Shown here: positions 983-64,000 of the stretch, one piece after another
How positions within the stretch are numbered: the stretch's first letter is position 1
Layout: the number at the start of each line of letters is the position of its first letter
Source of the DNA: Xylographa opegraphella
Lineage: Eukaryota
Direction of reading: 5' to 3'
DNA length: 64,000 nt
NCBI GenBank assembly: GCA_022813865.1
Contig: JALDZX010000060.1
Span: 1 to 64,000 of the forward strand
Position numbers and translations under genes: made by a program
The notes under the pieces: generated by a model
The model's database searches: none
What the model was told of the DNA's origin: nothing
Seen by the model: the letters and a program-made list of their open reading frames with translations, nothing else

Positions 983-1672
983 ATGGCTTCTCCAATCGCA
1001 GTATACTCTCTGCCTGGTAAGTCTCCAAGCCCACGTTCTGCTCTGAAGAAGCTCAGCCGCCTATACCAGATCTTAAGAACACTACCGACGACGCACTTCC
1101 CAATTACCTTACTTCCCTGGACTTCGAACAAACACATTTTCTCACCGATATACGTTTAGTATTGGGCTACAGCGCAGTTATTATTGCCGCTGTTACGTTT
1201 GCCTTTGATTACCAGTGTGGCTGGGATGAGACCAAGGGATACACTTATTGGGCCGTCATCACGTATTTTCTGCTGAATGGCGCTTTAACATTTTGGATTT
1301 GGTTTGCGGAGAAAGGAAAGGTCTTTCAGGGATTGACACAGAACGGGACACTTGTATGCTGAACAGGACTCAGTGGTATCAAGCAGTGGTTGCTGACGAA
1401 GTCGGCAGCTCACAATCGCTTCTAGCGTGCCTAAGCACAATCCAACATACCAGATCGTGGTTCGGTGGACAGATCCCAAAACTTCGGAAGCTTTTGACTG
1501 GGAAACTCGCGAAATATCCGCACCATTCACTACCTGGTTTTCTCCCGACGGGCAATTTATTGCAAAGCCCTTTCAACAGTGGTTATCCTCGAAAATTCCA
1601 GTGATCGCAGCCGCAGATGGAGCTGGCTCAAATAAGAAGACTGAAAACAAACGCGCTCGGTCAGGGTTATAA
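983..1672 (+). CDS. SPC2: Signal peptidase complex subunit 2 (SPC25 family); exons 983-1016, 1070-1353, 1409-1672; 193 aa
   Basis: GT-AG introns join in frame: MASPIAVYSLPDLKNTTDDALPNYL...TDIRLVLGY...YFLLNGALTFWIWFAEKG...PFTTWFSPDGQFIAKPFQQWL. Two hydrophobic helices, typical of fungal Spc2. Confidence 0.92.
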
Positions 1673-4742: not shown

Positions 4743-7700
4743 TATCACGGACCGTTAAGTACTATAACAGAATAAGGCCCTAAAAGCAGCCCGAATAATA
4801 AAAAAACCTAGATACTCGCAGTTAATAATAATAATTATAGTATAAACATAAAGTACTAAAACGAATATTACTACTATTATTATAATAGCAGACTTATTAT
4901 ATAATTATAGCAGAAGTCCCGAAGACTCTGATCATATTTAATTTATATATCGAAGGCAATAGCTAATTTTAAATAAACAACCCTTTTTTTAATATTTTTA
5001 ATCGCTGCTACTATTTTACCCCCTATGTAAAGGAATTTTACCATTATATTTTAAACATTATTTTAGCAGAATACGCAGAACGGTTAAGGTAAAATATTCA
5101 TTTTAAAATACGTTAAACCTAAACGATCGCAAGTTCGACAAGTCAAAAAAAAGATTATTACGTTTAAAAAGCCCGACGACTGGTATAAAGAACGTATTAA
5201 ATTAAAAACGTTTCTTCTACAGATCGATGCGTATATATAAAACAATTAAAAACAGTTTTGAATAGAAAATAAAGTAAAATTCGCAGTAAAATTCGCAGTA
5301 AAATTCGCAGTAAAATTCTGTAAGTGCAAAATTTTTGTTTATATTTAACTATATTTATCTGACTTCCTCAACAAATAAAAAGCAGATCAGAAAACTACTA
5401 CAAAAAATCTTTGATGATTGAAACGAATTTCAAAAAAACGCATTTAAAAACGTAACCCTAAAAATTACTTTAAAAAGAATTATTCGTATTGGTCCAAAGG
5501 GGTTTTGCATCAAAATACGCCTTTAAGCTTTAAAGTATTATTATCAATATTAATTGAAACGAATCCGCCTAAACTGCGTAGTTTTATAAACAATTTAAAA
5601 ATAACATTAAAATAATATATTTAAGGGAAACAAACCAGAAATATTCAAAAAAAATCAAAAAAATCAAAGCTATAACAATCGACAATCGATATTATAAACG
5701 ACGTATAAAAAGAAAAATGGGCATCGTACGCTTATTATTTTAAATAAAAAACGAAAGAATTATAAATTCGATAATTTTTTTTATTATTTTTAAAATTCCA
5801 AGCTCGGTAGTGATAAATTTTGAAAGGAAATAAAATTAAATGCAATAACGAAACGCCCGAAATAGTGTCGAAAGAAATAAAAAATATATTAATAAAAGTT
5901 TAATTAAAGAAAAAAATACTATAATTACAATAGAAAAAAATAATTCGCTAAAAATTATCGTTAATAAAAGAAAACTACCGCTAACACTATTAAAAAAAAT
6001 AGAAAAAGAATACTTTACTTTAATAAAAGCTCGCAGCAATACTAATAAATTATAATAAGCTTTCGTGAACGGTATACTACGACGACAATTATACTGATTT
6101 ATTTAAACAATAAAAATAGTTCTTAATAATTCTTAATACCGTTAATAAAAAAGATAAACTGCAAGCAACAAGTAAAAAACTAAAATTAATATAATTTAAG
6201 AAATAATCAAAGTTAGCCAAAACGAAATTTAACGCTACGTCGCTAAAGTTATAGAACGAAATTTGTTTAAATCGAATAATTCAATTATCGACTTTTTACA
6301 GAAATTTACTACGTATATAATAAAAAAATCTTTACAATAAAAATCATTCAAAATACTCAATGTAAATTAAACAATACGGCAAGCAGGAAAAATCAAAGCC
6401 ATTAACGAATATATTGTAAATAGGCATTATCAAAACTTCGACGATATGATAATAAAAAACTTAAAATTTACTGACAATAAATAAAAAGAAAATTTGATTA
6501 ATAATAACGAAAATTTTAAACTAAAATTAATAATCGCAAGAAACTTATCTTGTAAAAAAAATATACGACTCGATATTAAACGTGCTTAAATTTTTTTAAA
6601 AAGCAGAGTTTTTTTAAAAGAAAATCAATGATTTTCGCGAAAGATTAATATCATAGAAAAAAAGGGAAAATAATAATTTTTTAACATATAATTTATTAAA
6701 AATACTATAATATTTTAAAAAATAAATTAAAATCAATAAAAATGCGGTTTAACTAGCTTACGACCTAGCTCGATATATTCAAATTAATATTAAAAACGAA
6801 TATTAAATATAAAAATATTATTAAGGAAAATATATTTATAAAATTTTATTTAGAATAAACGAAAAGTACCTAACCCCGAACGAAAAAAATACTTTTAAAG
6901 AATTTAAAAAAGTAACTTAAATATTTAACAAAAAATACGAGCGTTAGAGGTTTAAGCGATACGAAAGCAAAAAAGTTCACGCAAAAATTTTTAAATTTTT
7001 AAAATTTTTGGACCCCGCGTTAAAAAATTAGTAAGCCCTTTGATAAGGTCAACGAAGGCGTTTTATAATAAGCCTTCGAATAAATATAAAAGCACTTAAA
7101 TAATAAAGATTTATTATTTAAAGAATACCCTCATAGCAATAAATTATATAAAAACTCTTTAAGTAATAATTCGTATAGACCAGTACTGCGTAAAAATTTT
7201 AATAAACTTTATATCGCCGAATATCGCGAATAAAACTAGCGTCGATTTTTAAAAAAAGACATTTTTACTCAGTAGTAACGATAGGCGAAATTCTTTTAAA
7301 GTACAATCAGGAACAAATTAATTAAAATATCAAATATAGGAAAATTCGAATTGAATTATATATTATAGCTATATAATTTAATATTACTATAACAGAAGTT
7401 TATAATATGATATTAAAATTATTTTAATTTAAAAGAATGAACTTATAACTCAACTAGGCTAGGCAAATAATGTACTTTTTAAAAAAAAAAAATTTTGAGC
7501 GAAAATTTGTTAGAAAACGGAAAAAAATACGCGTTTTTATTCCATTAATTTAAAAAAAAATTCGAAAATATCCAGGACAAGCATAGATTTTATGAATTAA
7601 GTTTATTCAAAAAATTAGTACGTTATTTAACGAAAAAGTATCAAAAAGGCTTTTCCCGCATATTATCCGGAAAATTATACTATATTTATAAAAAAGGGGA

Positions 7701-10700
7701 TAGAGTTAAACAAGTTTTTAATTTATTTTTAATTAATAAAGAAGTTAAACGCACTACAAGGAGCATCTTAACGAAAATTTAAAAAATTTTTATTGAAAAT
7801 TCGCAGTCGTTAGTTAAATACCCTACTTTATTCGTATTAAAAAACGGCAAGTTTCGACTTTATATCGATTATCGAGAATTAAATAACATAATTATAAAAA
7901 ATAGTTACCCGTTATTTTTAATTTCGAAATTATAGAATCGACTTTAAAAAGCCATATAATTCACGAAATTTAATATATCAAAAGTATATAATCGAATTCG
8001 AATAAAGAAAGGTAGAAAATAAAAAACCGCTACAAAAACGCGCTTCGAACTTTATAAATGTACAATTATATCTTTCGGGTTGATTAACGCTTTAACCACC
8101 TTTTAAGCTTATATTAACAATATATTTTAAAAATATTTAAATGTATTCCTAATAGTATATTTAAATAATATACTAGTATATTTCACTGACGAAATCAAAT
8201 ATATAAAATACGTTAAATAAATACTGTATATTTGAAAAAATGTAAACTTACGTATTAAATCAGAAAAATACGAATTTTATAAATTAAAAAATCGAGTTTT
8301 TAAGTAATATCGTTTGAAATAAAGATTTAAAAATAAATCTATTCAAAATAAAATTAATTTTGAAATAATTTACATTTTACTTAATAAAAAATGTACAATT
8401 TTTTCTAGACCGGCGAACTTTTATCGAAAATTCGTAAAAAACTACTCTCGAATAATTTAGTACTTAATAAATATAATTAGAAACAAAGTATTATTTCAAT
8501 AGAACGCTTTTATGCAAAAAGCATTCAACAAACTAAAATATAAATTTAATACAAAATTAATACTAATCATATTTAATTCAGGCAAAGAAATTCTTATAAA
8601 AATAAACTTTTTAAATTTTGTCATGGGAGTATATTTAAATTAAAAAAAACGACAAAAATGTCACCCAATAGCGTTTTACTTTAAAAAGTTTAATACATTA
8701 AAGCAAAATTATAAAATTTAACATAAAAAACTACTAGCGATTGTCGAAAAATTTAAAGAATAAAAAATATACTGCGAAAATTTATATATTCTATTTAAAT
8801 ATATATTAACTAAAAAATTTAATATACTTTGCTACGACCAAAGTTTCTAATGAAAAACAGATTGAATAATTCGAAAAACTATTAAACTACAACTTCGAAA
8901 TCCACTATCAAAAAGAATTTAAAAATGCAAAAGCAAACGCTTTTAACAGACGATTTAACTATATAAAAGAACGACTAAAAACTAAATAGTCAGTTTTGCA
9001 AAATACAGACAAGAATACGTTAAAATATAATTATTTATTTATAATTACGATAATGATCCAGAACCACGATTTAAAAATAAAAATTAAATCAGCTTACGTT
9101 AAAAATAAGCAAGTATAAAGAATTCTTGAAGAAAAATAACAAAAATGTACTACCTTCAACAACGATTTAATACTGTTTTAAGGATCAGTATATATACTTA
9201 GCTGTATAATAAAAGAAGTTATTTAAGAATATTATAATAAACTAATAAATAACCATTTATGTATTAATAAAACAATTAAACCGATAATTCGAATTTACTA
9301 CTCTTTATACATAAAAAAAGTTAAAAGGTATATTAATAGATATAATTTGTGCCACAAAACGAAATCAGCAAAGTATTAATCATATAAATGATTTAAATCA
9401 TTAAAAATACCCTTAAAATTATAATCTTTGATAGCATTAGATTTTGTAGTTAAGTTATTATTATCGAAAGAATTTATATAAAAATTTAATATAATTCTAT
9501 TCTAACGATTGTAAATAAATTTACCAAAGAAGTTCGTTTTATTTTATATATAAAAAACTCGAACACAAAGAATTTAATATATATCTTTTTAAAATATACA
9601 GTCTTTATATAGTTACTGCTGAATAAAATCATATTTAATAAAAATAAACTATTTACATCGAAGTTTTGGCAAATATTAACTAAAGAATCAAAAATAAATT
9701 ATAAACTATCAATTAAATATCACCCGCAGATAAATAAACAAATAAAAAATATAATAGTCGAATAATATTTCTATACATATATAAATTATCGATAAAATGA
9801 CTAAATTATATTACTATTAATAGTATAATTAATATACAACAATAATACTAACGAAATTACTAAATAAACGCTATTTTACGTCAATCGTAAATATTATATA
9901 AAATTGTTTCAAGACTCGAGGCCTATAGAAAAAATTAACAAGTTAATAAATATATTAATTAAAGAATTTCGACGACTATATATCGACTTGAAAAAAAACA
10001 TTAGATTCCTAAAGTTTAAATTAATATTCTACGTAAACCAATATAAATCTAGGGGCCCTATATTTAAAAGGGGAATTAAAGTTTATCTACTTTAAAAAAC
10101 ATCGAAATAACAAAATCAAGCAGAAATGAAATTATATTAGAATTAAATTTTTTAGAATCATTCGCAACATTAAGAATATAAATTTTGAGCTTAAATTATT
10201 GAAAAAAATATACTTAATATTTTATAAATTACAACTAAACGTAGTATCGCCAGAAATTTCAAAGTTGATATAAGTATCGAACAACTAACTATTTAATAAA
10301 ATAAAAGCAGAAATAAAAAGTAAAGAAATTTTTTAAATAACAGTTAAAATTTCGACGATAATATATATAAGTATTTTATTAAATAAAAGAAATATTTAAA
10401 TAACGAGAATACTTGGGAATTAGTAGTTAACCTTAACAATTATAAAATACTTATTGAACAGTACCATCAGAAAGTACGAACTTCAGGGGAAAAAGGCAAT
10501 AAAAGTAAAAACCCGAAATCGACGTTATTAAAATTAGATACGAGACTTCCTAGAAAAAATAGCCCCCGATGTCGATAAAAAAGTTTTTTTTTCTTTTTTG
10601 TTACCTTTTATTTTTTTTAAGGTTTAAACAACTATTTTCGCCTTACGCTTTATTAAATATTATTTTATATTATTATTCGACGACGTTTTAACAAGGCAGC

Positions 10701-11300
10701 CTTTATTTGTTTTTTCGCCGTTGTTAATTTAACGTTCAAACGACTTCGTTTTTTTTATCAACCTTTGCGAAATTGAAATTAAAAAATATTTTTATATCGT
10801 AAAAACGACCACGCTTAAGGCAGATAAAATACGATTTAAAATAATCGAAAATTACGCAATTTAATTACGCCTTTTAACAGGTTACGTATTTAAACGCCAC
10901 ATAAATACCTCAGTATTTTATTTTATAATAATTATTTTTAACGTAAAAGCGATAGAAAAAAAATACTTTTTTTAAAAATAAAAACCTCAAAGGGGGGAGT
11001 TAATATTACGAACCGCCAAGTATTATAATAAAGTAAAATTTTAAGGGTAACCCGGATAATAAAAAAGCCTAAATCGAGCAGTTAATAATAATAATTGTAA
11101 TATAAGCATAAGGTATTAAAACGACTATTATTATTATATAATTATAACAAAAGTCCCGGGGACTCTGGCTATATTTCATTCATATATCGAAGGCAATAAC
11201 TAATTTTAAATAAACAACCCCCTTTTACCTCCACCTTTTTTAAACATCTTTGATCGTTGCCATTATTCTGCCCTCTGTTTAAAGGAATTTCACCATTACA
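4743..11300 (+). mobile_element. RIP-inactivated Ty3/Gypsy chromovirus (element 1)
   Basis: LTRs 4743-5048 and 11004-11300. TSD ATATA/ATATG. PPT AAGGGGGGAG at ~10990. RT motif VYLNNILVY (RIPped YLDD) at ~8155. Integrase YHPQ at ~9718. Chromodomain relic IK*KKY..NENTWE at ~10380. Confidence 0.9.
10560..10960 (-). pseudogene. RIPped antisense ORF in Gypsy element 1: Zn2Cys6-like cluster plus coiled-coil-like tail
   Basis: 10888-10799 reads YVTC*KA*LNCVIFDYFKSYFICLKRGRFY. The Tyr codons at positions 1, 20 and 30 are one G>A change from Cys. ORF ends are approximate. Confidence 0.6.
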
Positions 11301-17521: not shown

Positions 17522-20500
17522 TTAATTTCGCGATCATATATCGCAGGGTTATTTTAATAAGTTAATTAATTTTTTAAACTAACCGTTAATTTAAAAGTAA
17601 TATATAGTAAAGTATAGCGATTTTACTTTTGGAATTTAAAAACCCTTTTTTTAAGTTTCGGTAAAAACTTTCGATCCCTATTTGATAATATAATATTCAG
17701 AATAAATTATTTAATAATTTAAAAATATACAAAAAACTTTTTAATTTAATTCTTTGCCGTATAAATACTTTTCCCTAATATTATATCAATTTTTTACTAA
17801 ATTTCTATATTATAATAAAGCAGTAATCGTATTTCTATTATAATTTTAATAAAGCGAGGATAAAATCTATTATTATAAAATAATAAAAAATATTAAGCAT
17901 TAAAATTAGCTAAAGATTTCTTTAAAATTTATGCCGCTTAATTTAATTTTTAAAATGTTATTAATAAAATTTAATATACGCTTTAAAACAATATTCAAGC
18001 TGGTAAATATATAAAAAAATCGTAGTTATTTTATAAATATAATAATATTCAGTATAATCGTATACATCGTACGTTATATTTTATATAATACGTTTTTTAT
18101 TGAATCGTACGAAATATACAGTTTTTTCGATTATTTTTATAATTTAATAAATAAAAATACTTATTATTTTTTTATATAGTAAAGATATCGCGTACGTATT
18201 CAAAATATCGTTTTTATAATTTTTTTCAAAGATTTTATGCTAATGAGTATCGCTTTCGTATTTAACAATGAATTTAATTTCAAAATTAAATAACATTTTT
18301 ATTATAATTGTTTAATAATTATATAAATAATTAAATTTATTATAAAAATTATTATAGTCGTTGCGCGTATTGTCGCTATTTAATTTAAAAATAACGTTTA
18401 ACATAATATAAAATCAATCGGGCTTGTACTTAATAATAAATTTAAATTTTTGAAAATATTTTAAAGCTTTGATAAATCGTAGATTAAATTTTTTAATCTT
18501 TATAATTAACAGGTTAATTTAAATTACGATAACAGTAATTATAAAATAATTAATACATATTATTGCGATTGATTTTCTTACGACTTTTAATATATATTAA
18601 ATTTTTTTAATAATCCAGATTAAATATGCTATATTTATTTTAATAATCCAGATTAAATATGCTATATTTATTTTGATAAATTAATATCTTTTTTTATATT
18701 GATTAAGGCTTTGCTAAAAAAATATAATATATTGAATATTAAAATATTTTAATATAAAAATAGATTTATAATCTTAGCGTTCATTATTTAAAAAAATATT
18801 TTAACATCGAATAAAATAATAAACGTGTTTTTATATTCGTTAATATTTTTAATATAACAAATATAAAGTTTTATTTCGCGTTTTTAAAACGTATCGATAT
18901 CGTAGAAAAGCCATCGTAATAAATTAAAATACGCCAAAATAAACAAATTATTAAAAACGTTTTTAAATTTTTAAAAAAATTCAGTTCAACTAAGGTTAAA
19001 TTATTTATAAATAAATTTATTGCCGGTTTTCGTTATACATTATTAACGTTATATTTTACGAAATTTTGATTAAATATTTTTCTGCGTTTTTTTTAAAAAC
19101 GATATTAAATAAATATACCTCGCGACGTAATTACAAAAATCTTTAATTATTTTTAAATATATTTCAAGTTTATATTATAGAAATATTTAAAAAAAATTAT
19201 TTTAAAATTATTTTCTATCATTATGAAATCGAAGATATTAATCTTTTAGCGTGATAAATTTACATTTAAATAATTTAAAAAAGATTTATTTAGGGCTAAA
19301 TATATATTATATTTAAATAAATACGAAGAAACTGCGTATAAATAAAATAATATTTTTTAACATATTTAAATAAATTACTGCGCTATTAATATACATTTTA
19401 CAGTAAATCTTATATTCTTTATAATATCGTTGATTTTTTCATATATAAACAAAGCTATTACAGTAATTTATTAATATAATGTTAAATATTTTTTGTTCTG
19501 ATAAGACACGACTGAGAGGCGATTTTAATAAAAATTATAAATTTATTATTACTAAAGAAATTAATTATAGTTTATTATCGATACATATATTGCTTTGCGT
19601 ATTTAATAAGGTTTTAACCAATGTTGTGTGAAACAAGGGTCGGAGGAACCTTATTCCGGCTGCCTCCTCTGCCTCTGTAGAAGGCATAGAAGGAGTGACC
19701 CCTGAAACCTCGATGGCCTCCTCGGGAGGTATAGAAGGCATTTTAAAACAGGACTTTTATATAAAGCGAAGGATTTCCTTACTGTAAAAGGCGTATTCAA
19801 TTCATGTTATAATCTTAGAATAGTAAGCTTCAATATAAATCTCTTATACGAAAACTATTATTCTTAAAGAATTATTAAACTGTTACTATGCCTTCCTATT
19901 TATTTATTAACGAATTCAACCAAGATCCTTAGTCGAAATATATTAATAAGAAGCAGAATCGTATCACTTTAAACATTTTTAAAATAAGTGTATCAGGAGC
20001 ATAATCAAACTTTCCCCCAAGTATTATAAAAAATAATAAAAAAATACCACAGAAGAAAATAATCGCGTCAAGGTAAAAAGACCTAATAAGTATAAAGAAA
20101 ATAGGGATCATTTAAAAAATTAGCTTATATAAATGGATTTATTCTTTGAGTTCCAAGGAAATAGTATCCCAGAGTTAAAAAAATCACTTTTCGCTATCAC
20201 GTACATGCGAGGACAAGCTTAGAAATAAATTATCTTTTATTTTAAGAAATATTTCGAAAACCCTAACAACGAAGACTTTAGGTGGTTAAAAAAACTTTAC
20301 AACGTTTAAGGTCGAAATTCGAAAAGTTTTCAGATCATTAAACAAGAAAAACACGGCAATACGAATCATACAGCATTTTAGACAAAAGAGATTTTGTGTA
20401 AAATACTCAAGTCGATTTCAGCAGTTTGCGATACAGACTGAATAAAACGATAATACTTTGATTGTAATATACCGTAAGGGACTTAAAGATTCGGTAAAAA

Positions 20501-23257
20501 ATAAATTAATAAGGACTGGTGCTGCAATCAAGACTATGGATCAGATAATCGAAATATGCATAAAAATTTACGACAAGCTATAAAAAAAAGCCATAGAACG
20601 CAGACACGAAATCGAAGGCACAACAAGAATTAAATCCTAGAAAAACGGCTTTCAAGCAAAGAAAAAATCGTACAAAACGTCGAATTCTTATGGACTGATG
20701 CCAATAGAGGTAAATGTATTTTAAAAGCAAAAGCAGAGTTTTAAGAAACAGCACTTACGGGGTAAAAAACCAGGGATTACCTGTTACGTATGTAAAAAGA
20801 TCGGCTATATTGCGAAGAACTGTCGGTCGAAAAACAAAATGCCTAGACCATAAATAAACGTACATTTAAAATTTTCGATCAAAACGAAATTTAGAAAAAA
20901 AGACCATCAGCTGTCTTTATGCAAGAAAGAGAATACAGAACTCATCTTAATTTCAAGCAATCAGGCCAGTACAAGCAGAAACAACGAAAAGGTTGATACC
21001 CAGAAAGACATTACTTTATATCAAGAAGACAGTCTTTGGGTAGAAATCAACAACAACGAAGAAAGCAACTCAAATATTAGCAGCCTACAAATCGGGGGGG
21101 ACCCCAAGGAACAAAATATCGAGTTAGACAATCCCGACAACTAGACCTATAAAGAAACTGACGAGCCAAAAAAGTCGAAGAATACAGTAAATAATCACTG
21201 GGATTATCGAGTAGATCCAGAACATCCACGTTACGAAATAATATATTATAGTGCTTATACAAGCATTTACTACAGAGTTTATTAAAAAGATCATAAATAC
21301 AACGGCCGCATAGATAAAGTCTGTTATAAAACTTAAATTTGGGATAAATGCTTTAAAAACGAATGCCCATGGCATTTAAGAGAAATACGAAGGCATTTAT
21401 CCTTTCCGGAATATATACAAGAATTCTGCAATAACTTAATTATATACGGAACCCGTCCAGAGAAAAATAACTACGGAAACTCGTTATAACAATGGTATTT
21501 CCATGGATGATGTATAATATACATAGAAGTCAAAGAAATTTACGGCTATCTCGAACAGGGAAAAAAATAATCCCATATATTATGAAAAAATATATAAAGA
21601 TTAATATAATATACCCCAAAACACACTGGAAGGAGCCAGACTGTGTAAATTTTATAAAGATTTCGATTATTATAAACAGTTATTGAACAACCGTATTATT
21701 AAATATTAGAATTAATTTAAATTATATATTCAGCACTTTCGCGAAGAGCTGTGACTTCGAATCATTAGTTTTGGAATAGATTCAAATAATAATGGCCGAC
21801 GGGTTATCAAGAAAAAAAAAGAGCGACACACAAGATCATTTCCTGTCGCTATTTATTAATATCATGAAAAAATAATCTTTAGTATAATTATCATGGCCAG
21901 GTACTATATCATTCTAGGCTTATTTTAGTAAATCAAGCATAATATATTCCTAAACTGGGACAGAGAAGTACTTATCAAGAAGCATATTAATCGCGTTATT
22001 AATATATATTCTATACATCGACAAAGAACGATAATAAATAAATAAAAAAACCGAAAACCGGTCGAGATTATAGATATTTTATTTTTAAATAAAAACGATT
22101 TTACTCTAGGGTTCGGCTTGATACGCACTAGTATAGATTAGTAAAACAAAATAAATCAGAGTTTGAAAAGAAGTAACGCATCTTTTGACATCCCTAAAGA
22201 GTATAAAGCATGGACATGACTTTTTCAGGAAAAGGAAGGACTTAATGCTCTACCTAAGCACCAACCTTAGAACTGTGAGATTAACGATATGTTAAAAAAA
22301 GGACTTTAGGAGCTTTGCAAGTACATCGAAGAAAGTCTAAAAAAGGGATTTATACGCGAATCAAAATTCTTAGCAGAATATTCAGTAATATTTATATTTA
22401 AGAAAGACGGAAGCTTGAAACCTTGCATCGATTATCGAAAATGAAACGATATTATTATTAAAAATCGATATTCGCTACCGAAAATTAGCGAGATACGGAA
22501 TAAACTCGATAAAGCCAAAATTTTTATCAAGCTCGACCTTAAGGGCGTATACAATTTAATCAGGATAGAAAAAGGTAAGAAATAAAAGACTGCATTTCGA
22601 AGCAAATATGGGTATTATAAGTACCAAGTTATGCCTTTTAGGTTAATCAACGTATTTATTATTTATTAAACGTTAATCAACAACCTATTAAAGGCGTACT
22701 TGGATTCAATAATGATAATCTATTTGGACGATATACTTATTTACTCAGAATTAGCAGAGGAACATATAAAATATATACAGAAAATACTTACTTATTTAGG
22801 AAAAGCAGGACTACTTTTTAAATCAGAAAAATATAAATTCAGTAAAAACAAGGTAGTCTTTCTAGGATTCGTATTTAATAAAAAAAATCAAAATAAACCC
22901 AGGAAAGATAAAGACCATACTCGAATAGCCTTAACCAATAATAGTAAAAAAAATTTAAAATTCCTAGGATTTGCAAACTTTAATAGAACTTTCATTAAAA
23001 ATTACTTTAAAAAGGCGATATCTTTAACAAACCTGATACATAAGGATGTAAGCTTCAAATGGGATTCGAATCAACAACGAGCCTTTAATATTTAAAAAAA
23101 AATTCTATACAACCACCAGTTTTAATAATATTCCAGGTAGAAAAACCTGCAAGAATGGAGATAAATGTATTAAATTTAGCCATAAAGGCATGTTTATTGC
23201 AGATGCAAAATAGGAAATAACACCCTATTATATATTATTCAAAAAAATGTTACAAGC

Positions 23258-23506
23258 TGTAACGGCGTGTTACATGGCACCTTAACAAGTGATAGACGGA
23301 ACGGGACTAAAGCGCGTCCGGGACTNNNNNNNNNNNNNNNNNNNNNNNNNNNNNNNNNNNNNNNNNNNNNNNNNNNNNNNNNNNNNNNNNNNNNNNNNNN
23401 NNNNNNNNNNNNNNNNNNNNNNNNNNNNTATTATTCTAGGTTGAAATCGCTCACCTATAGCTGAGGTTCTAGGCCTGCTTTTCTGGTGAGATAGCGAGCC
23501 GTAACA
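23258..23506 (+). mobile_element. Solo LTR, family A, inside the RNase H region of element 2
   Basis: TG...CA termini, TSD CAAGC, spans an N gap. Confidence 0.9.
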
Positions 23507-25105
23507 CAAGCAGAACAAAATTATAATATTTACAATAAGGAATTACTTGCTATGTTAATATAGATTTAAAACTGAAAAGTATATATAGAAAGTTGTTCAG
23601 AACTGATTATATATATAAATTATAAGAATTTATTAAGCTTTACCACGATAAAAGTACTTAACAGAAAGTAAATACGATAAGCAGAACTATTAGAATAATA
23701 TAAATTCAAAATCATATATATATCAGGTAAAAATAATGGAAAAGCAGAAACACTCAGCAGAAGAAAAAACCTTATAAACAAGGAATTAATAAATAAAGCC
23801 CTATTACGAAAGAATAGCAACGGAGCTTTTATTCTAACAAAACAAATTGTAGCTTTCGAAATAAAAGGAATTACAAAAGATTTGACAGAATCGTCAGCAG
23901 AAAAAATAATCAAATATTATCACGATAAGACAATTAATAGTTATTTAAAAATTATTAAAACGATAGAATTTATAAAAAGAAACTATGAATTCCCGAACAT
24001 GAAAAAACATATAGAAAAGTATATCAAAAAGTGTATACCATGCCAAAAGAATAAATCAACAAGAAACGTAGTATATAAAAACATTTAGTTTTAAAAGGTA
24101 TTAAACAGACCATAGAAATAGATCTTGATCGACTTTATTACCAAATTGCTAAAATTAGAGTATTCAATAACGGGATAAAAGTACGACTTAATAATAATAC
24201 TTATAAATAAACTTACGAAATACTTTATTATTATTTTTTAAAGAAACGTTTACAGTAGAATAGTTGATATTCCTTTTGTTAAACAGATTGATAAGAGATT
24301 ATGGTTTTTTAGCTAAAATTATTTCCGATAGGGACAAATTGTTTACATTCAACTTTAAAAGACTCCAATGTCTAAACTAGGAATTAAATTAAGAATGTCA
24401 ACAGTTTATTACCTACAGACAGATAAACAAATTAAAAAAATAAATCAAAACTTGAAAGTATACCTACGGCGCTTTATAAATTCAAAACAGAATAATTAGG
24501 TATTATTATTGCTTTTAGAACAACTGGCATTAAATAATAAACAATCTGCGATTACAGGACTATCGCCTTTCTTCGCGAATTCAGGGCGTCATTCTTAATT
24601 ATTTAAAGACAAGAGACCAGAACCTAATGCAAACAAAGCAATAATATTAGCCAAAGATTTAAAGACTACGCATAAGGCGTTATTCAAGAAAATCGAACAA
24701 AGTAACGACAAATTCGCTGCAACAAGATATAAAGATATCAAGAATGGACCTTAACTAAAGAAGAGGGATAAAGTTTACCTTCTTACGAAGAACTTGATAA
24801 TCAGCAAGAAACGAAGCAAGAAACTTAATTATACTAAAGTCGGACCATCCTTAATTAAGCAAGTCAAAAGACCATTTAATTACCTTCTCAACCTGCCAAA
24901 AGATGCGAAAATATACTCAGTATTTTATATGTCCTTATTAGAACCTGCGGACGCCAGTACTCCAGTATAAATAACCTTTTAATATAAAAAAAAAGAAGAA
25001 CAGGAATTCGAAGTGAAAAAATCTTGGACAAGCAAGGTCAGAGATATTTGGTTAAATAAAAAAGTTACCCAGAATCGAACAATACTTGGGAACCACTTAC
25101 TAGCC

Positions 25106-25612
25106 TTAGGAATTGCCAGGAACTTCTTTAACAATATTACCAAGCAGAGCAAGAATCTTAGAAGAGGAAACTTCCAAAGCCTCAGAAAAAAAAAAGGGAG
25201 GAGAGAGGGCCCCGTAGGAACCGCTGGTAAGGGCTTTCGCCTCTCGTCGTTTATTATCTTCCAGGGCCTCAATGTTGAACATTTCGCGTTGGAACATTTC
25301 CCGTTTCTCGTCCTTAATATTCAAAAGCCGACGTTCCTCTCGACCTAAAGCCTTTCTTAACTTAACCACGCAACGTTTTATTTTACTCTTCCATTTCTTT
25401 AAATCTCGACGGTCGGCATCAATAATAATTAGAAAATATTAAGCTTTAACTGCTACGCAGTTCGCGCAGAATTCTGACTTTAAAGAAATCGTATAGAGAA
25501 AACATTCTTTAATACAACGATCATAAGGGTGCATTGTGAATTTTCCTTTATTATAAATACTATGCGACTGAACCTTTCGATGATAAGCGCTGGTTAATTT
25601 GTATTTTAATAT
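25106..25612 (-). pseudogene. Antisense ORF of Gypsy element 2 (~168 codons, one RIP-type stop): Zn2Cys6-like cluster plus coiled-coil-like tail
   Basis: Single frame ...MHPYDRCIKECFLYTISLKSEFCANCVAVKA*YFL...DADRRDLKKWKSKIKRCVVKLRKALGREERRLL, continuous with ORF 25106-25369. Confidence 0.7.
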
Positions 25613-28600
25613 AATACAGAGAAGCTACTGGAATTCTTTCGAAGCAAGAATCTGGCGGGGGAAGCTAGTAATAAGGTTTTAAACAATATTGTGTGAAACA
25701 AGGGTCGAAGGAATCTTATTCCAGCTGCCTTTTCTGCCTTTATAAAAGGCATAAAAGGAGTGACCCCTAAAGCCTTGATGGCCTTCTCGGGAGGCATAGA
25801 AAGTATTTTAAAATAGGATTTCTATATAAAGTAAAGGATTTCCTTACTATAAAAGGCGTATTCAACTTATATTATAATCTTAGAATAGTAAGCTTTAATA
25901 TAAACCTTTTGTACGAAAACTATTACTTTTAAAGAATTATTAAACTGTTACTGTGCCTTCCTATTCATTCATTAACGAATTCAACCCAGATCCTTAATCG
26001 AACTATATTAATGAGAAGCAGAATCGTAACAGTATTATAGTAATAATCTTTATTTATAAAAGAATAAAATATAAATTCGAAACTAAATTTTTACTTAAAA
26101 ATTGTATATTAGCTACGACACGATTTTTTAATTTTTTTTTAACTTTTTTCTGAATTACGAAATATAAATAATTAAATAGTATAGTATTTAAAAATTAATT
26201 CATTTTATTTTAAACATAAAATTTATTAAATTATTTATTAACAATTTCGCGGTTTTTAGGGGCGAATAAATATATTTTAAAAATTGATTTATAAATTAAT
26301 AATCAATTGTTGATTAATAACATCTTTTTTTATTTTGCTTTTAAAATATTTATTACATTATTATTATTTATCTATAACCGGGGGAAATTATTTATTATTT
26401 CGACAATTTTTACTATAGTGATTAATTTTTATTATATATAATAACTTTATGTAAAAGTATTCGTTTTATCTCTTCGACGATATATTATATCAAAAAATAT
26501 TTAAAATTATAATTAAAATTAAAATATATATATTTTTTATTATTTTTAAAATATACCGCCATATTTGCTTCGTTTAAAAATATTAAAAAATATTTATTAA
26601 TATTATATTTTACAAGATTGCTACGGTTAATTTTCTATAATATTATTATAAATTAAAACATATTATTTATTATATAAATATAAAAAAATTACGTTTACTA
26701 CGTATATATAAAAGTTTTTATATGTTAATTCGAAAAGAAAATTACGATCGAGGGGAAATTGTTTAATATATTAAACTACGATAGGTGTTTTAATATAAAA
26801 TAAAAATATAACGTTTTTTAAAATAAAAATACTTTTTTGAATTTTTTGTTAATACGTAGCGTAATAACTATATTAATAATTATATTTTTATAATTATTAA
26901 TAATTACTCTGTTTTAGCGAGGATAAAAATTAAGATTTTTAGGCAAAAAATTTACTTCGATAAAAATTTTTACTTTAAAATTCTCTATAAATCACGTTTT
27001 TTAAACGATATAAAGTATCGCCAGCGTATCGTTTGCGAAAATACTAAAAAAATAAATATTTAAATTAATATATTTACTAATTCGATATTGATCAACATTA
27101 ATTCTTTAAACGATAAATAACGAAATAATTTTTTAACATATTCGCCTTTTAATTTTATTCGAGTAAAAAATCTTAATTAACTAAAATTATCGTATAGTTT
27201 ACATCGAAACATATTTAAACAAAAAATATATTTAATGAAAGGTTTATTTAAATTATAATATAATATAATTTTCGAAAGCTTAAATCACCCGTTTGTAATT
27301 AAACGACGTTTAATTTTAACATATAGAAATAATTACGATAAATTGTCGATTGCTATAAACTCTGATCTGGCTATTTTTAAAAAAAAAATAATATATATTT
27401 AATTTTTTTTTGAAATGAACGAAAAGGTTATACTAAAATTTGAAGATTGTATGATACGTATTGTGTTAATATTCAAATATTACGAAGTATACTATAAGTT
27501 TACTATTTTTAAGAGGGGTTTAAGATTATTTAAATAAATATCGTAACTTTAATTTTATATATTATACATTTATTCGTTTTGCGCGTTATAATAACTTTAA
27601 TTATAATAAATTTTATAGTAACTTTAATCATAATAAACTTGAACTTATTTATTGTTAAATTTCTTTTTAATATTAATAGCAGTAAATTTTATATTTTTAA
27701 TATTTTTAATATTTTTAACGTTTTTAACGTTTTTATTATAATAAATTATTAATCATCACTTCGAGTGCTAATAGTTATTTTAATAGTCGTTTTAATTTCT
27801 TAAAAATCCTTTCAAATATTTCGGCGCTTTTTCGACCGCGTTGTTCGTATTTTAAATTTTAAATTAATTATTTCACGTATTTTTTTTAAATAAATAACAA
27901 CAATTGCCTTGATTGTTGAACTACCTTGAAAAAGCGTTAAAATAAAAAACGGCTAAAATAATCTTGAAAGAAAATTTAAATTTTTTATAAAGAGATAAGT
28001 TTACAAAAATTGTAAATTTTTTTTAGATTTTTTGAAATATTCTAAAAACCATCTCTCAAAAAATTCAAAAAGCCTTGATTTTAATTATTTTTAAAGCTAA
28101 ATTTAAATTAAATTTAATTATTTAATTACGAATAATTAAACGATTTATCTTTATTAAATTAATTTTTTTATTTCGATTTTAGAGTTTTAAGAGATATTTA
28201 TATAAAAATAATAATATTTAGCTTATTTAATAACTTTTTTAAAAAATACATTAATATATATTCGGGTTTAAATTACGAATTTAAATTTATTTTCGCTTTA
28301 ATTATATTCTTTTATAACAATAATAAATATATCAATATATTTTACGCGGTTACGGCTATTTCGTAAATTTTTCATAATATAACGCGTATTAACATATTTA
28401 TTAAAAAGTTTCGCTCGAAATCGTTCGAAAACGTCGTTTAAATATTTTACAAAATTCTTTAATGCTATTTAAATAAGCTATTAAATTAAGTTTTATAATT
28501 TTATTATTTTGAATGTTTTATTATAATTCGGCCTCCCCACGGAAATACGTATTTAAATTTTATCGTATTTTTATTATATTTTTAGTATTTACTGCGATAC

Positions 28601-46832: not shown

Positions 46833-47650
46833 ATGGATACTCTGAATGTTCGTCCTTCACTTTCCTGCACAACAGTGCTCTGATTCAGGTATAGATGGCC
46901 ATTAACGATTTCATACTCAAGCCGCAATATACTGAGTATCTTGCGCTCATCAAAGCTGCACGTAATGGTGCGGTCTACGGTGCCAAAGTTCGCTTTCCGC
47001 ATGCTCTTGTGTAAGATTTGCTATCTCGGGGTAGGCAAGAAGCTTGTGTACTTATACCTTTGGTGCACACAGCATGGTATTTCTCTTTCGATCGGGCTCG
47101 TAGGTTTCGTCCTTCTCCTCCATAATCAAACCTTTCGCGTTATGCATTTTGTTGACTTCTTTTGGGCCATAGTCTGAAGGAGAAGCTTAGGATTATCTTC
47201 AAAGCGACTCGGACGCATGCGCACAATCTTGCAACATTTGCTGTCATTTACAAAACTACCGTCTTAATTCTCCGCCGTGCTTCGCGGTCTGGGGAAGAAG
47301 CATCGTACCACACTTTCCTAGCGGGTCTCCTGGGTGGCTATATTGTCTTTGGTCGCAACTCTCAATCAAGCGTCAACCAGCAGATCGTCACCTATGTCTT
47401 TGCGCGCGTCATACTTGCATTGGCAAGGATGTTTGTGCAGAAAGGTGGTATACTGCCGCTGCAGCTTCGAGAACAACTAGCTGGAAATGCATGGCCAACG
47501 TTCGCGGCGGTGAGCTGGGGAGCGGTGATGTGGCTCTTCCGGTGGTATCCAGAGACAATACAACCAAGTATGAGGAGTAGTATGCAGTATATATATACCA
47601 ATGCAGATCATTGGGGCGGGTTTCGGGATTTCCTTATACACAACAAATAG
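46833..47650 (+). CDS. Peroxisomal membrane protein 4 (PXMP4/PMP24, Tim17/Tim22/Tim23 family); exons 46833-46847, 46895-47010, 47073-47099, 47173-47650; 211 aa
   Basis: Spliced protein has RNGAVYGAKVRFPHALVMVFLFRSGS, THAHNLATF, SSVNQQI and SSMQYIY, characteristic of fungal PXMP4. Exon phases are consistent. Confidence 0.92.
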
Positions 47651-55049: not shown

Positions 55050-55298
55050 TGTTACGGCTCGCTATCTCACCAGAAAAGCAGGCCTAGAACCACAGCTATA
55101 GGTGAGCGATTTCAACCTAGAATAATACAAGGAAGCAAGTTTANNNNNNNNNNNNNNNNNNNNNNNNNNNNNNNNNNNNNNNNNNNNNNNNNNNNNNNNN
55201 NNNNNNNNNNNNNNNNNNNNNNNNNNNNNNAGTCCCGGACGCGCTTTAGTCCCGTTCCGTCTATCACTTGTTAAGGTGCCATGTAACACGCCGTTACA
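55050..55298 (-). mobile_element. Solo LTR, family A
   Basis: Reverse complement of 2265-2495, TSD GTATT. Empty homologous site at ~18248. Confidence 0.9.
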
Positions 55299-55844
55299 GT
55301 ATTACTTGCGTATCTAACAATAAATTTAGCTTTAAAATTAAATAACATTTTTATTATCGTCATTTCATAATTATACAAACAGTTAAATTTACTACTAAAA
55401 ACTATTATAATTATTACGCGTATTATCGCTGTTTAATCTAAAAATAATATTTAATACGATATAAAATCAACCGGGTTTGTATTTAACAATAAATTAAAAT
55501 GTTTAAAAAATATTTCAAAACTTCAACGAGTCGCAGATTAAATTTTTTAATATTTATAATTAATAAATTAATTTAAATCGCGATAACAATAATCGCAAAG
55601 TAATTAATATATATTATTACGATTGATTTCTTTCCGATTTTTAACATATATTGTTTTTATAGTAATAATTTAAATCAAATACGTTATTTTTATTTCAATA
55701 AATTAATTTTTCTTTTCGTTTTAATTAAAATTTTACTTAAAAATATAATAAAATAAATATCGAAATATTTTAATATAAAAAACAAGTTTATAACCTTAAC
55801 ATTTATTATCTAAAAAAAATTTCAATATCGAATAAAATAATAAA

Positions 55845-62036: not shown

Positions 62037-62098
62037 CTTCACCGAATATACGATTACTGTTGCCCCCGCCCTGATCCAAATACACGTGCCTTTTAATA
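62037..62098 (-). mobile_element. Family H repeat end (gap-truncated)
   Basis: Reverse complement of 43116-43177. Confidence 0.7.
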
Positions 62099-62731
62099 CC
62101 ATGCATATAATAAAAAAGGAATGCTTCGTTGTGCTTTTTCTTTTATTTTATAGAACTAGGAGCACGTCTATCCGATTTCTACCCCAGATGTCCTATTCTG
62201 CTGTCATATCCTATGCTACAATATCATCCCCTACCCCATCCCCATCCCATCATCCCATCATCCCATCATCCTCCCACCCCTTCCAACTCCACCAAGTTCC
62301 ATCCGTCCCACACATAACCTTCCGCACCCCCGCCCCCCTCTCTATTCCGAACCCATACAACGACGCTGTCCCACGCAACGCCACGCTGCCTCCTCACTCT
62401 CCGCGCTTCTCTTCGCACGGCCGAGGGAGCTAGGCTGTGATGCCGAAAGCCGATAGGACGAGGTGTGAAATGGTGAGGCGGCAGGAGCCGCTGCCGCTGC
62501 ATCGGAGGTGGGAGTTGTGGCTGAAGCCGTGCGGTGGCTAGAGTTTTGGCTTTTCGTACTGCACTTCCGTACTGTGCTTCCGTATCGTGCTCGTCGTAGT
62601 CATTTGATGCGTCCGTCGTCCGGAATGCCCAACCGGGCACATCTCCCAGTCCCAACTTCCCCTACCCCAAATCCCAACCGTTCCCATCAAGCATAACCGC
62701 TCGTCTATATCTCCAAATCCATCAAGAAATC

Positions 62732-64000
62732 TCACAACGCCAAGCCCGAGCCATCGCCCGTCCATCGGTACAGCGAGAGGACCTCCCGCCGCCGCAGCTG
62801 CTGCTCGCCAAAATCTTCCGACACGCGGCCTTTGACCTGCGCAAGGGCGGAGCGCATGACCTTGCGGAAGTTCCGCTGGCCGATGGCGTTAGCGCGATGC
62901 CAAAACGGTCTAGTTTGAAAAATAAAATAAAAATTGGGAAAAACAAAAGACGAATCTTACCTGATACTCCGTATTGAGCGTCACGACGCACGCCTCGTGC
63001 GCGCGCACAATCGTCTCGCACGCCTTCACCACGCTCGGGCTCGCTTCGCCCTGCAACTTGTCGGCGATGAGGAGCAGCAGGAAACTGCCCTGCAGGAGGT
63101 AGATGCCGAAGAAAAAGGGCATGAAGCTGAGGTCGGGGTCGTACTCGAGGATGTCGCTGATGGCTTCGGCGGCGCTGACGGCGTGGCCGGTCGCGCTGAT
63201 GAACGACTGCGAGCTGATCCACAGGTCGTTGTCGTCCAGCAGAGAAATAGGATCCCACTTCCCCGTCAGGAGAATGTGCAGCACGTGCATGACGTGCGTG
63301 CCGTACGCGACCACCGTCTTGGTCTGGATGATGGACTCGGTGATTCGGGACGAATTGGAGTTCGCCGATCGGACGGAAGGGGTCCCCATGTCGCCATTGA
63401 CGTGCTCCGATTCTGTTGGCTCGGTCGAGTGCATGTTCGCAGTGTAGCGTGTTTCGAATTCCTTCAGGCTTCGTCCATACGCCTCCAGTTGCTGCGTGAT
63501 TTCGGCGGCTTGGTCGTCCCATTCATTGCCCCCTCGGAAGCCAAGACCAAATCTGGGATGATTGCGCGCGTGATTGAGGTCGACAATTTCGCCCAGGATC
63601 GTCATCAGGGGTAAAAAGTACCCATAAATACTGTGACCGGTACACTCGAAGCTGGGGCCGGTTCGACGGTACTGTGGAGTATTCGGACTTCCTGAATAGA
63701 TGCTGGAATTTCCCGAATAGAAATCGCCAGCCTGCCAGACCGTGTCGCTGATTGGTTGAAGAAGTCCATCACATTCGATGTCCAGCAGAAACAGCGGGCG
63801 ATTGTAACAGAGTGCCAGATGTCGATCCACGGTATATAGTAACCACCATATCCGCCGGCGCTCTTCACGCTCCTCCTCGCTCACCGTCCCCGGTGGTACT
63901 GGGTCATTGGTGGATCCTGGTATTCCGTTCGCCGGTTCCTGCTCCGCCATGTCAAGATCGACCTCTCCATCCGCATCCGCTTCATCTCCCTGCACATGAT
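62732..64000 (-). CDS. xlnR: Xylanolytic transcriptional activator XlnR/Xyr1, 3' part; exons >64000-62961 and 62875-62732
   Basis: [70 protein letters not shown]...[13 protein letters not shown]. Hallmark XlnR C-terminus with a GT-AG intron. Confidence 0.96.

Follow-up and report, generated by a model that had tools for sequence, protein, structure and literature searches.

A probable inactivated copy of a conserved antisense accessory gene, encoding a Zn2Cys6-like protein, in an ascomycete Ty3/gypsy chromovirus

The stretch of Xylographa opegraphella DNA analysed here (64 kb, hereafter the window) contains a complete Ty3/gypsy chromovirus of 6,428 nt on the plus strand, which we refer to as element 2. 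A decayed open reading frame (ORF) lies on its minus strand toward the 3' LTR. The features of the element and of this ORF are as follows.

19599-19603, no strand: target-site duplication GTATT, left copy, directly before the 5' LTR and repeated at 26032-26036
19604-19966, plus strand: 5' LTR of 363 nt, 88.7% identical to 25669-26031, with boundaries TAATAAGG...CA
19967-25668, plus strand: internal region of the Ty3/gypsy chromovirus, with many stops and Pfam domains across two frames
25012-25143, plus strand: chromodomain of pol (PF00385, E 3.3e-09), residues 1682-1725 of the frame starting at 19969
25106-25230, no strand: antisense overlap of the ORF tail with the end of the chromodomain and the pol tail, approximate, with an uncertain upper bound
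25106-25612, minus strand: decayed antisense accessory ORF, with ATA where a start codon is expected, identified by homologue and HMM matches
25232-25420, minus strand: charged helical, coiled-coil-like segment, aligned with helix 65-145 of the model of homologue P0001
25436-25525, minus strand: six-position cluster Y-x2-C-x6-Y-x8-C-x2-C-x6-Y, aligned with the six Cys columns of the family
25439-25441, minus strand: in-frame TAA within the cluster, the sole internal stop of the ORF by codon reading
25654-25664, plus strand: polypurine tract (PPT) GGCGGGGGAAG, a stretch of purines that ends 4 nt before the 3' LTR
25669-26031, plus strand: 3' LTR, recognised by the identity of the LTR pair and the candidate promoter site for the antisense ORF
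26032-26036, no strand: target-site duplication GTATT, right copy, matching the left copy

Assignment of the host element to the Ty3/gypsy chromoviruses is based on its LTRs, target-site duplication, PPT, gag, reverse transcriptase, RNase H, integrase and C-terminal chromodomain; the Pfam families recognised in the internal region were Retrotrans_gag, RVT_1, RT_RNaseH, Integrase_H2C2, SH3_Tf2-1 and Chromo. The TpA/ApT ratio was 1.04 in the internal region (GC 0.30) versus 0.71 in the part of the window that carries genes, and the dinucleotide indices of the element fit RIP-type decay. Its RNase H region is interrupted at 23257-23506 by a short repeat that is richer in GC and has an N-masked core, and the flanks of this repeat recur at 2264-2495 and 55050-55299 with 98-100% identity; it looks younger than the RIP-type decay that surrounds it. 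Elsewhere in the window, GC-rich islands between the AT-rich repeat blocks carry host genes, encoding an SPC25 signal-peptidase subunit (about 1070-1600, plus strand), a Tim17/22/23-family protein (about 46940-47400, plus strand) and a Fungal_trans transcription-factor domain (62037-64000, minus strand) with an N-terminus that lies beyond the window edge.

On the minus strand, 25612 to 25106 comprise 169 codons, that is, 168 codons and a terminal TAA at 25108-25106. The translation given by an earlier sequence-only reading of this DNA, with its one internal TAA, was reproduced letter for letter. The same reading had taken the ATA at 25612 for a mutated start codon, and this codon aligns with the Met of the "MP..." N-terminus of the homologues described below. 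It had also placed a long charged helix after the cluster, which agrees with the helix predicted in the model of P0001 and aligned to the window. The conserved helix motif of the family reads FNIEALEDNKR in the window copy, and its N and L are invariant in the 25-row family alignment. The first codon is separated from the PPT by 41 nt and from the 3' LTR by 56 nt, which would place any promoter within or beyond the 3' LTR. The proposed location between the chromodomain and the PPT was accurate in that the ORF fills the space from pol to the PPT; at its other end it needs correction, as the last codons overlap the chromodomain envelope (25012-25143) and the pol tail. The antisense stop codon stands opposite the Leu-Arg codons (CTT AGG) of the C-terminal helix of the chromodomain; the upper bound of the overlap is uncertain because pol is broken there.

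Within the cluster, the window copy retains three of six Cys codons, at 25516-25514 (TGT), 25468-25466 (TGC) and 25459-25457 (TGC), and the other three positions are Tyr codons, all TAT (25525-25523, 25495-25493 and 25438-25436), which gives a Cys-or-Tyr spacing of x2, x6, x8, x2 and x6. The losses of Cys to Tyr are G-to-A changes of the RIP type. With an ATA in place of its start codon, one in-frame TAA, half of its cluster Cys residues now Tyr and a stop-riddled pol beside it, the window copy is a dead fossil without function. We searched all six frames of the 64-kb window for the exact spacing with Cys or Tyr at each of the six positions and found two occurrences; in 100 first-order Markov resamples the mean was 0.03, and a match with three or more Cys and no more than one stop occurred in one of the 100 only. 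The second occurrence starts at 10888 on the minus strand and coincides with the second-best match of the family HMM in the window (minus strand 10745-10918, i-E 0.4, not significant). It lies in another gypsy element, element 1, which has LTR pieces at 4894-4989 and 11131-11226 and a chromodomain at 10360-10473, and it is placed antisense between chromodomain and 3' LTR, as in element 2. The match probably represents this kind of gene in another element, in a much more advanced state of decay.

Taken alone, the window ORF had no Pfam match at E ≤ 10, and a word-indexed protein search with it gave 32 candidates, none at E ≤ 1. A phmmer search against 1.84 billion representative proteins revealed eight relatives at E ≤ 1e-3, the best of which was P0001 (177 aa, 44% identity, E 1.9e-19), followed by a match at 8e-14. 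A profile search started from these relatives examined 3440 candidates and retained 38 proteins at E ≤ 1e-3, most of them from ENA or JGI assemblies and without a name; the UniRef name of one member, which comes from the lichen fungus Lasallia pustulata, is "Zn(2)-C6 fungal-type domain-c...". When these data were turned back on the window, the decayed ORF matched P0001 in tblastn at E 9e-31, and the family HMM covered 25600-25103 with an i-E of 4.4e-30. A search with P0001 returned P0001 itself only, without a name. In the ESM Atlas, P0001 stood beside unnamed Ascomycota clusters of 62-210 members; overall, the Atlas gave unnamed Ascomycota clusters only, of 52-646 members and with no Pfam family in common. 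A scan of viral contigs with an alignment of the family gave 75 pattern matches, none of which was confirmed.

The family proteins are 145-190 residues long and share a layout of a short basic N-terminus (RRR/RRK), a six-Cys module with the spacing C-x2-C-x6-C-x8-C-x2-C-x6/7-C, a long helix with the motif R-E-L-x-N-I-E-E-L-E-x-D-E, and an acidic or Ser-Pro tail. Quantification of the six columns in the 25-row alignment (150 cells) gave 122 Cys and 28 Tyr, which together fill every cell. All six positions were Cys in 15 rows, and the remaining rows deviated by Tyr only; outside the six columns, Cys made up 0.2% and Tyr 0.7% of 3,886 residues. Since Tyr is the G-to-A product of the Cys codons TGY and the homologues hold Cys at these positions, the proposal that the three TAT codons of the window copy were formerly Cys is borne out rather than assumed. 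The assertion that their spacing falls in the GAL4 range also holds at the level of the family, with C-x2-C-x6-C-x5-12-C-x2-C-x6-8-C present in 15 of the 25 rows. Among all 43 collected proteins, the spacing expression was matched by 15, and many of the others are truncated or RIPped.

Can the association with a retrotransposon be seen beyond the window? Scanning metagenomes with a sub-alignment of the family yielded seven loci (L001-L007), and in each of them Pfam recognised a gypsy pol by SH3_Tf2-1 and/or Chromo; these domains lie on the strand opposite the ORF and immediately 3' of it. The window and all seven loci share the placement between pol and the 3' LTR as well as the antisense orientation relative to gag-pol. 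Three loci (L001, L002 and L007; GC 0.48-0.53) showed no RIP signature and carried intact antisense ORFs with six Cys, of 172, 161 and 191 codons, respectively. The other four had in-frame stops and Tyr at some cluster positions, and their RIP-type dinucleotide indices were clear in L003-L005 and weak in L006. The pol frame of L007 is open over 1103 codons from its first ATG (1138 from stop to stop), and its antisense ORF is open at 1517-2092 from the Met taken as the start and at 1364-2092 from the first ATG. L007 itself is a metagenome contig of 6209 nt with the order pol, antisense ORF, one LTR and gag, which resembles what a circularly permuted element, or a tandem assembly of one, would give.

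The antisense ORF and pol overlap by 92 nt in L001, 80 nt in L002 and 89 nt in L007. In these three loci and in the window (four of four), the ORF stops within the sequence that codes for the chromodomain, with codon position 1 opposite codon position 1. This shared phase at the end of the chromodomain indicates that the antisense ORF and pol constrain each other, and the conserved C-terminal "...PGSS" tail of the family follows from the fixed overlap. Between elements, the antisense proteins were 50, 37 and 37% identical, and the C-terminal 110 residues of pol shared 57, 43 and 41%; with identities this near to those of pol, the antisense protein has been kept about as well as pol. Our data agree with the view that a retrotransposon-borne accessory gene lies here outside gag-pol, as it is conserved across diverged elements and stands beside the end of pol in all seven loci. 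We regard it as very likely that the ORF family is a real conserved gene.

We then asked what kind of protein the family encodes. An AlphaFold2 model of P0001, built from 25 sequences (pLDDT 81.6, metal free), contains two short helices (31-36 and 50-55), each beginning at a CxxC pair, an arrangement known from Zn2Cys6 binuclear clusters, followed by a single helix of 81 residues (65-145, pLDDT 97-99). Foldseek comparison of this model with 350,542 PDB chains gave 16 matches at E ≤ 10 (E 0.9-7), and all 13 matches listed out of these 16 are Zn2Cys6 proteins (Pho7, GAL4, PUT3, LAC9, LEU3, PPR1, HAP1 and AlcR). Re-alignment of the matches gave Z scores of 2.1-2.8, the tightest superposition being an rmsd of 1.9-2.2 Å over 33 residues of 1cld (LAC9). 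A model of the domain only (residues 1-75 of L001, pLDDT 67.9) was compared with 48,161 representative chains without Foldseek, and PPR1 ranked first (Z 3.2, rmsd 4.4 Å, 49 residues); Zn2Cys6 domains made up 6 of the 15 chains at Z ≥ 2, and the others were BTB domains and assorted helices. Each of these structural scores (Foldseek E 0.9-7, Z 2.1-3.2) is insignificant taken singly. Weak scores are to be expected for a domain of 33 residues, and it is the repeated enrichment of Zn2Cys6 that carries weight. A homodimer prediction for residues 25-150 of P0001 scored 0.31 against a mark of 0.32.

Sequence profiles gave a more reserved answer. More members matched Zn_clus than any other Pfam family (14 of 25 at E ≤ 10, with a best E of 0.0033), and the match pairs the first half-cluster of the family with the second half of the model. 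The gathering score of Zn_clus (PF00172), 21 bits, was reached by none of the 25 members. The HMMER comparison with PF00172 that had been suggested accordingly came out against a plain Zn_clus assignment, with no match for the ORF itself and every member below 21 bits. The family profile compared with all PDB sequences gave 21 matches at E ≤ 10, all of them coiled coils and none a Zn2Cys6 chain. A PROSITE-style signature of GAL4-type clusters calls for basic residues at C2+1 and C2+4, and it fits none of the 15 six-Cys members, which have Arg or Lys at C2+2 and C2+5 and most commonly Gly at C2+4. The recognition helix is thus unlike that of GAL4-type factors, and binding to CGG should not be assumed. 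Pairs of CGG/CCG upstream of the ORF, on the LTR side, showed no enrichment in the two loci examined, L002 and L007 (6 versus 10.1 expected, and 3 versus 3.6 expected). Given the sub-threshold Zn_clus scores and the misfit to the signature, we use the term "Zn2Cys6-like" for the family and leave it outside PF00172. A Zn2Cys6-type fold is nonetheless quite probable for the family.

The comparison with GAL4-type Zn2Cys6 factors is one of both likeness and difference. The six-Cys spacing of the family lies within the GAL4 range, and, in the model, helices that begin at CxxC pairs are followed by a helical coil and then an acidic tail, as in those factors. Unlike them, the family has a far longer helix (81 residues in the model) in place of a short dimerisation coil, lacks the Fungal_trans middle domain, measures 145-190 residues in all, has shifted basic residues in its first helix and is encoded on a mobile element.

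One potential explanation for the window ORF is that it is a chance frame in the AT-rich, RIP-mutated 3' region, or else a fragment of a host gene or an unrelated insertion unique to this copy. Tyr codons of the form TAT are common in RIPped DNA, the pattern requires that three Tyr be taken as Cys, and the window ORF by itself finds neither a Pfam nor a word-indexed protein match. The significant homologues recovered by phmmer and by the profile search speak against a chance frame, as do the same arrangement in seven of seven independent loci, the conserved overlap phase, and a pattern frequency of 0.03 expected per window. The homologues, the loci and the Cys columns argue equally against a host-gene fragment and a nested foreign insertion, and together they refute this group of explanations unless all homologues are gene-caller artefacts without common descent, which leaves it hardly credible. 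A second potential explanation is that selection keeps the antisense RNA, as a regulator of copy number or silencing or as a source of dsRNA, with the open frame arising incidentally. Other LTR elements, for example Ty1, are regulated by antisense transcripts. Botrytis retrotransposons are rich sources of small RNAs, according to excerpts of PMC8365987. Conservation in the family is nevertheless at the level of amino acids: the six columns hold Cys, or Tyr in decayed copies, the peptide motif is kept at 25-35% overall identity, and the frame is intact in all three non-RIPped loci. We consider an RNA-only role highly improbable.

The alternative that bears most directly on function accepts a real, conserved accessory gene and holds that its six-Cys module is a zinc knot with a structural role, borne by a long coiled coil. 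Such a protein would not bind DNA and would make contacts with protein or RNA, for instance in Gag/VLP assembly, in targeting by integrase or chromodomain, or with host silencing factors. Residues of the recognition helix that are off the canonical Zn2Cys6 pattern (signature fitted by 0 of 15 members), Zn_clus scores below threshold, CGG pairs that are not enriched on the LTR side and a model helix of 81 residues, far in excess of GAL4-type dimerisation coils, all speak for a zinc knot. The best structural matches, on the other hand, are all DNA-binding Zn2Cys6 domains, and the basic stretch before the cluster and acidic tail after the coil form the layout of a small activator. In our judgement a structural zinc knot is unlikely. 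The protein could instead be a DNA-binding regulator, and we hold this reading tentatively.

Is the gene new? An antisense gene at the same place has been published as brtn, from the Boty elements of Botrytis (Zhao, Virology 417:248, 2011; cited in PMC8365987, PMC7264820, PMC4227169 and PMC5987419), and the novelty implied by the sequence-only reading was in this respect overstated. Excerpts of the citing papers report that brtn occurs in BcGypsy1 and is missing from the current B05.10 annotation (PMC8365987), that it has been grouped in a review with plant antisense aORFs of unknown function (PMC7264820), and that a Monilinia transcript matches both a truncated Pol with a chromodomain and BRTN (PMC5987419), so that Pol and BRTN would lie side by side there too. 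As described in those excerpts, brtn resembles the present gene in being an extra antisense gene between pol and the 3' LTR of a chromodomain-bearing fungal Ty3/gypsy element. It differs in that the excerpts mention no zinc cluster, coiled coil or pol overlap, and in that the window copy is decayed. The name BRTN appears on none of the homologues from the profile and P0001 searches. Compared by position, orientation and element type only, the present family is likely to be the brtn family. Searches of the literature by title and abstract found nothing linking such an antisense gene to a zinc cluster, and the 2011 description of brtn may say more; the zinc-cluster reading and the overlap rule may be new.

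Plant Ty3/gypsy elements offer a further comparison. Grande, RIRE2, Retand and PvRetro13 carry antisense ORFs between pol and the 3' LTR, according to the parts of the review that treat them (PMC7264820). These ORFs have the same position and orientation, and their conservation is described there as comparable to that of the other proteins of the element. The plant elements differ in being mostly non-chromoviral, with long 3' regions; no sequence relation to them was seen, and the same parts of that review report no zinc cluster (PMC7264820). Overall, the window ORF is probably the inactivated remnant of an accessory gene that ascomycete Ty3/gypsy chromoviruses have conserved, about 145-190 codons long and of the brtn-like kind. 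The gene starts a few tens of bases inward of the 3' LTR/PPT and runs antisense to gag-pol. A transcript from a promoter in the 3' LTR would yield the protein, which is predicted to hold two zinc ions through its six Cys and to oligomerise through the long helix, and which would act as a putative nuclear, nucleic-acid-binding regulator of the element's own expression.

HBZ of HTLV-1 is a bZIP factor that is encoded antisense and transcribed from the 3' LTR. The present protein would resemble it as a small antisense product beside the 3' LTR that combines a DNA-binding-type module with a dimerising helix. The folds are unrelated (bZIP versus zinc cluster) and HBZ belongs to an animal retrovirus, which makes this an analogy of layout only. 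Ascomycete chromoviruses may encode a transcription factor of their own, with a divergent Cys6 two-zinc cluster, a long coiled coil, an acidic tail and an antisense promoter in the 3' LTR. Such a factor would bind the LTR or nearby chromatin and switch sense transcription or counter heterochromatic silencing, and an ancient antisense overlap of 80-92 nt would tie its frame to the chromodomain. This full proposal is doubtful; if it is true, the chromovirus-encoded factor would be the fungal counterpart of HBZ.

LTR retrotransposons are usually viewed as gag-pol machines that depend on transcription factors of the host. With a conserved Zn2Cys6-like protein encoded by the element, fungal chromoviruses would possess their own regulator, and this bears on how they evade or exploit silencing. 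Botrytis retrotransposons have been linked to small-RNA-based pathogenicity, as stated in excerpts of PMC8365987. A profile, six Cys columns and a constant phase of overlap with the chromodomain now define the family, which is thereby easy to annotate and to test, and its decay from Cys to Tyr provides a clean read-out of RIP.
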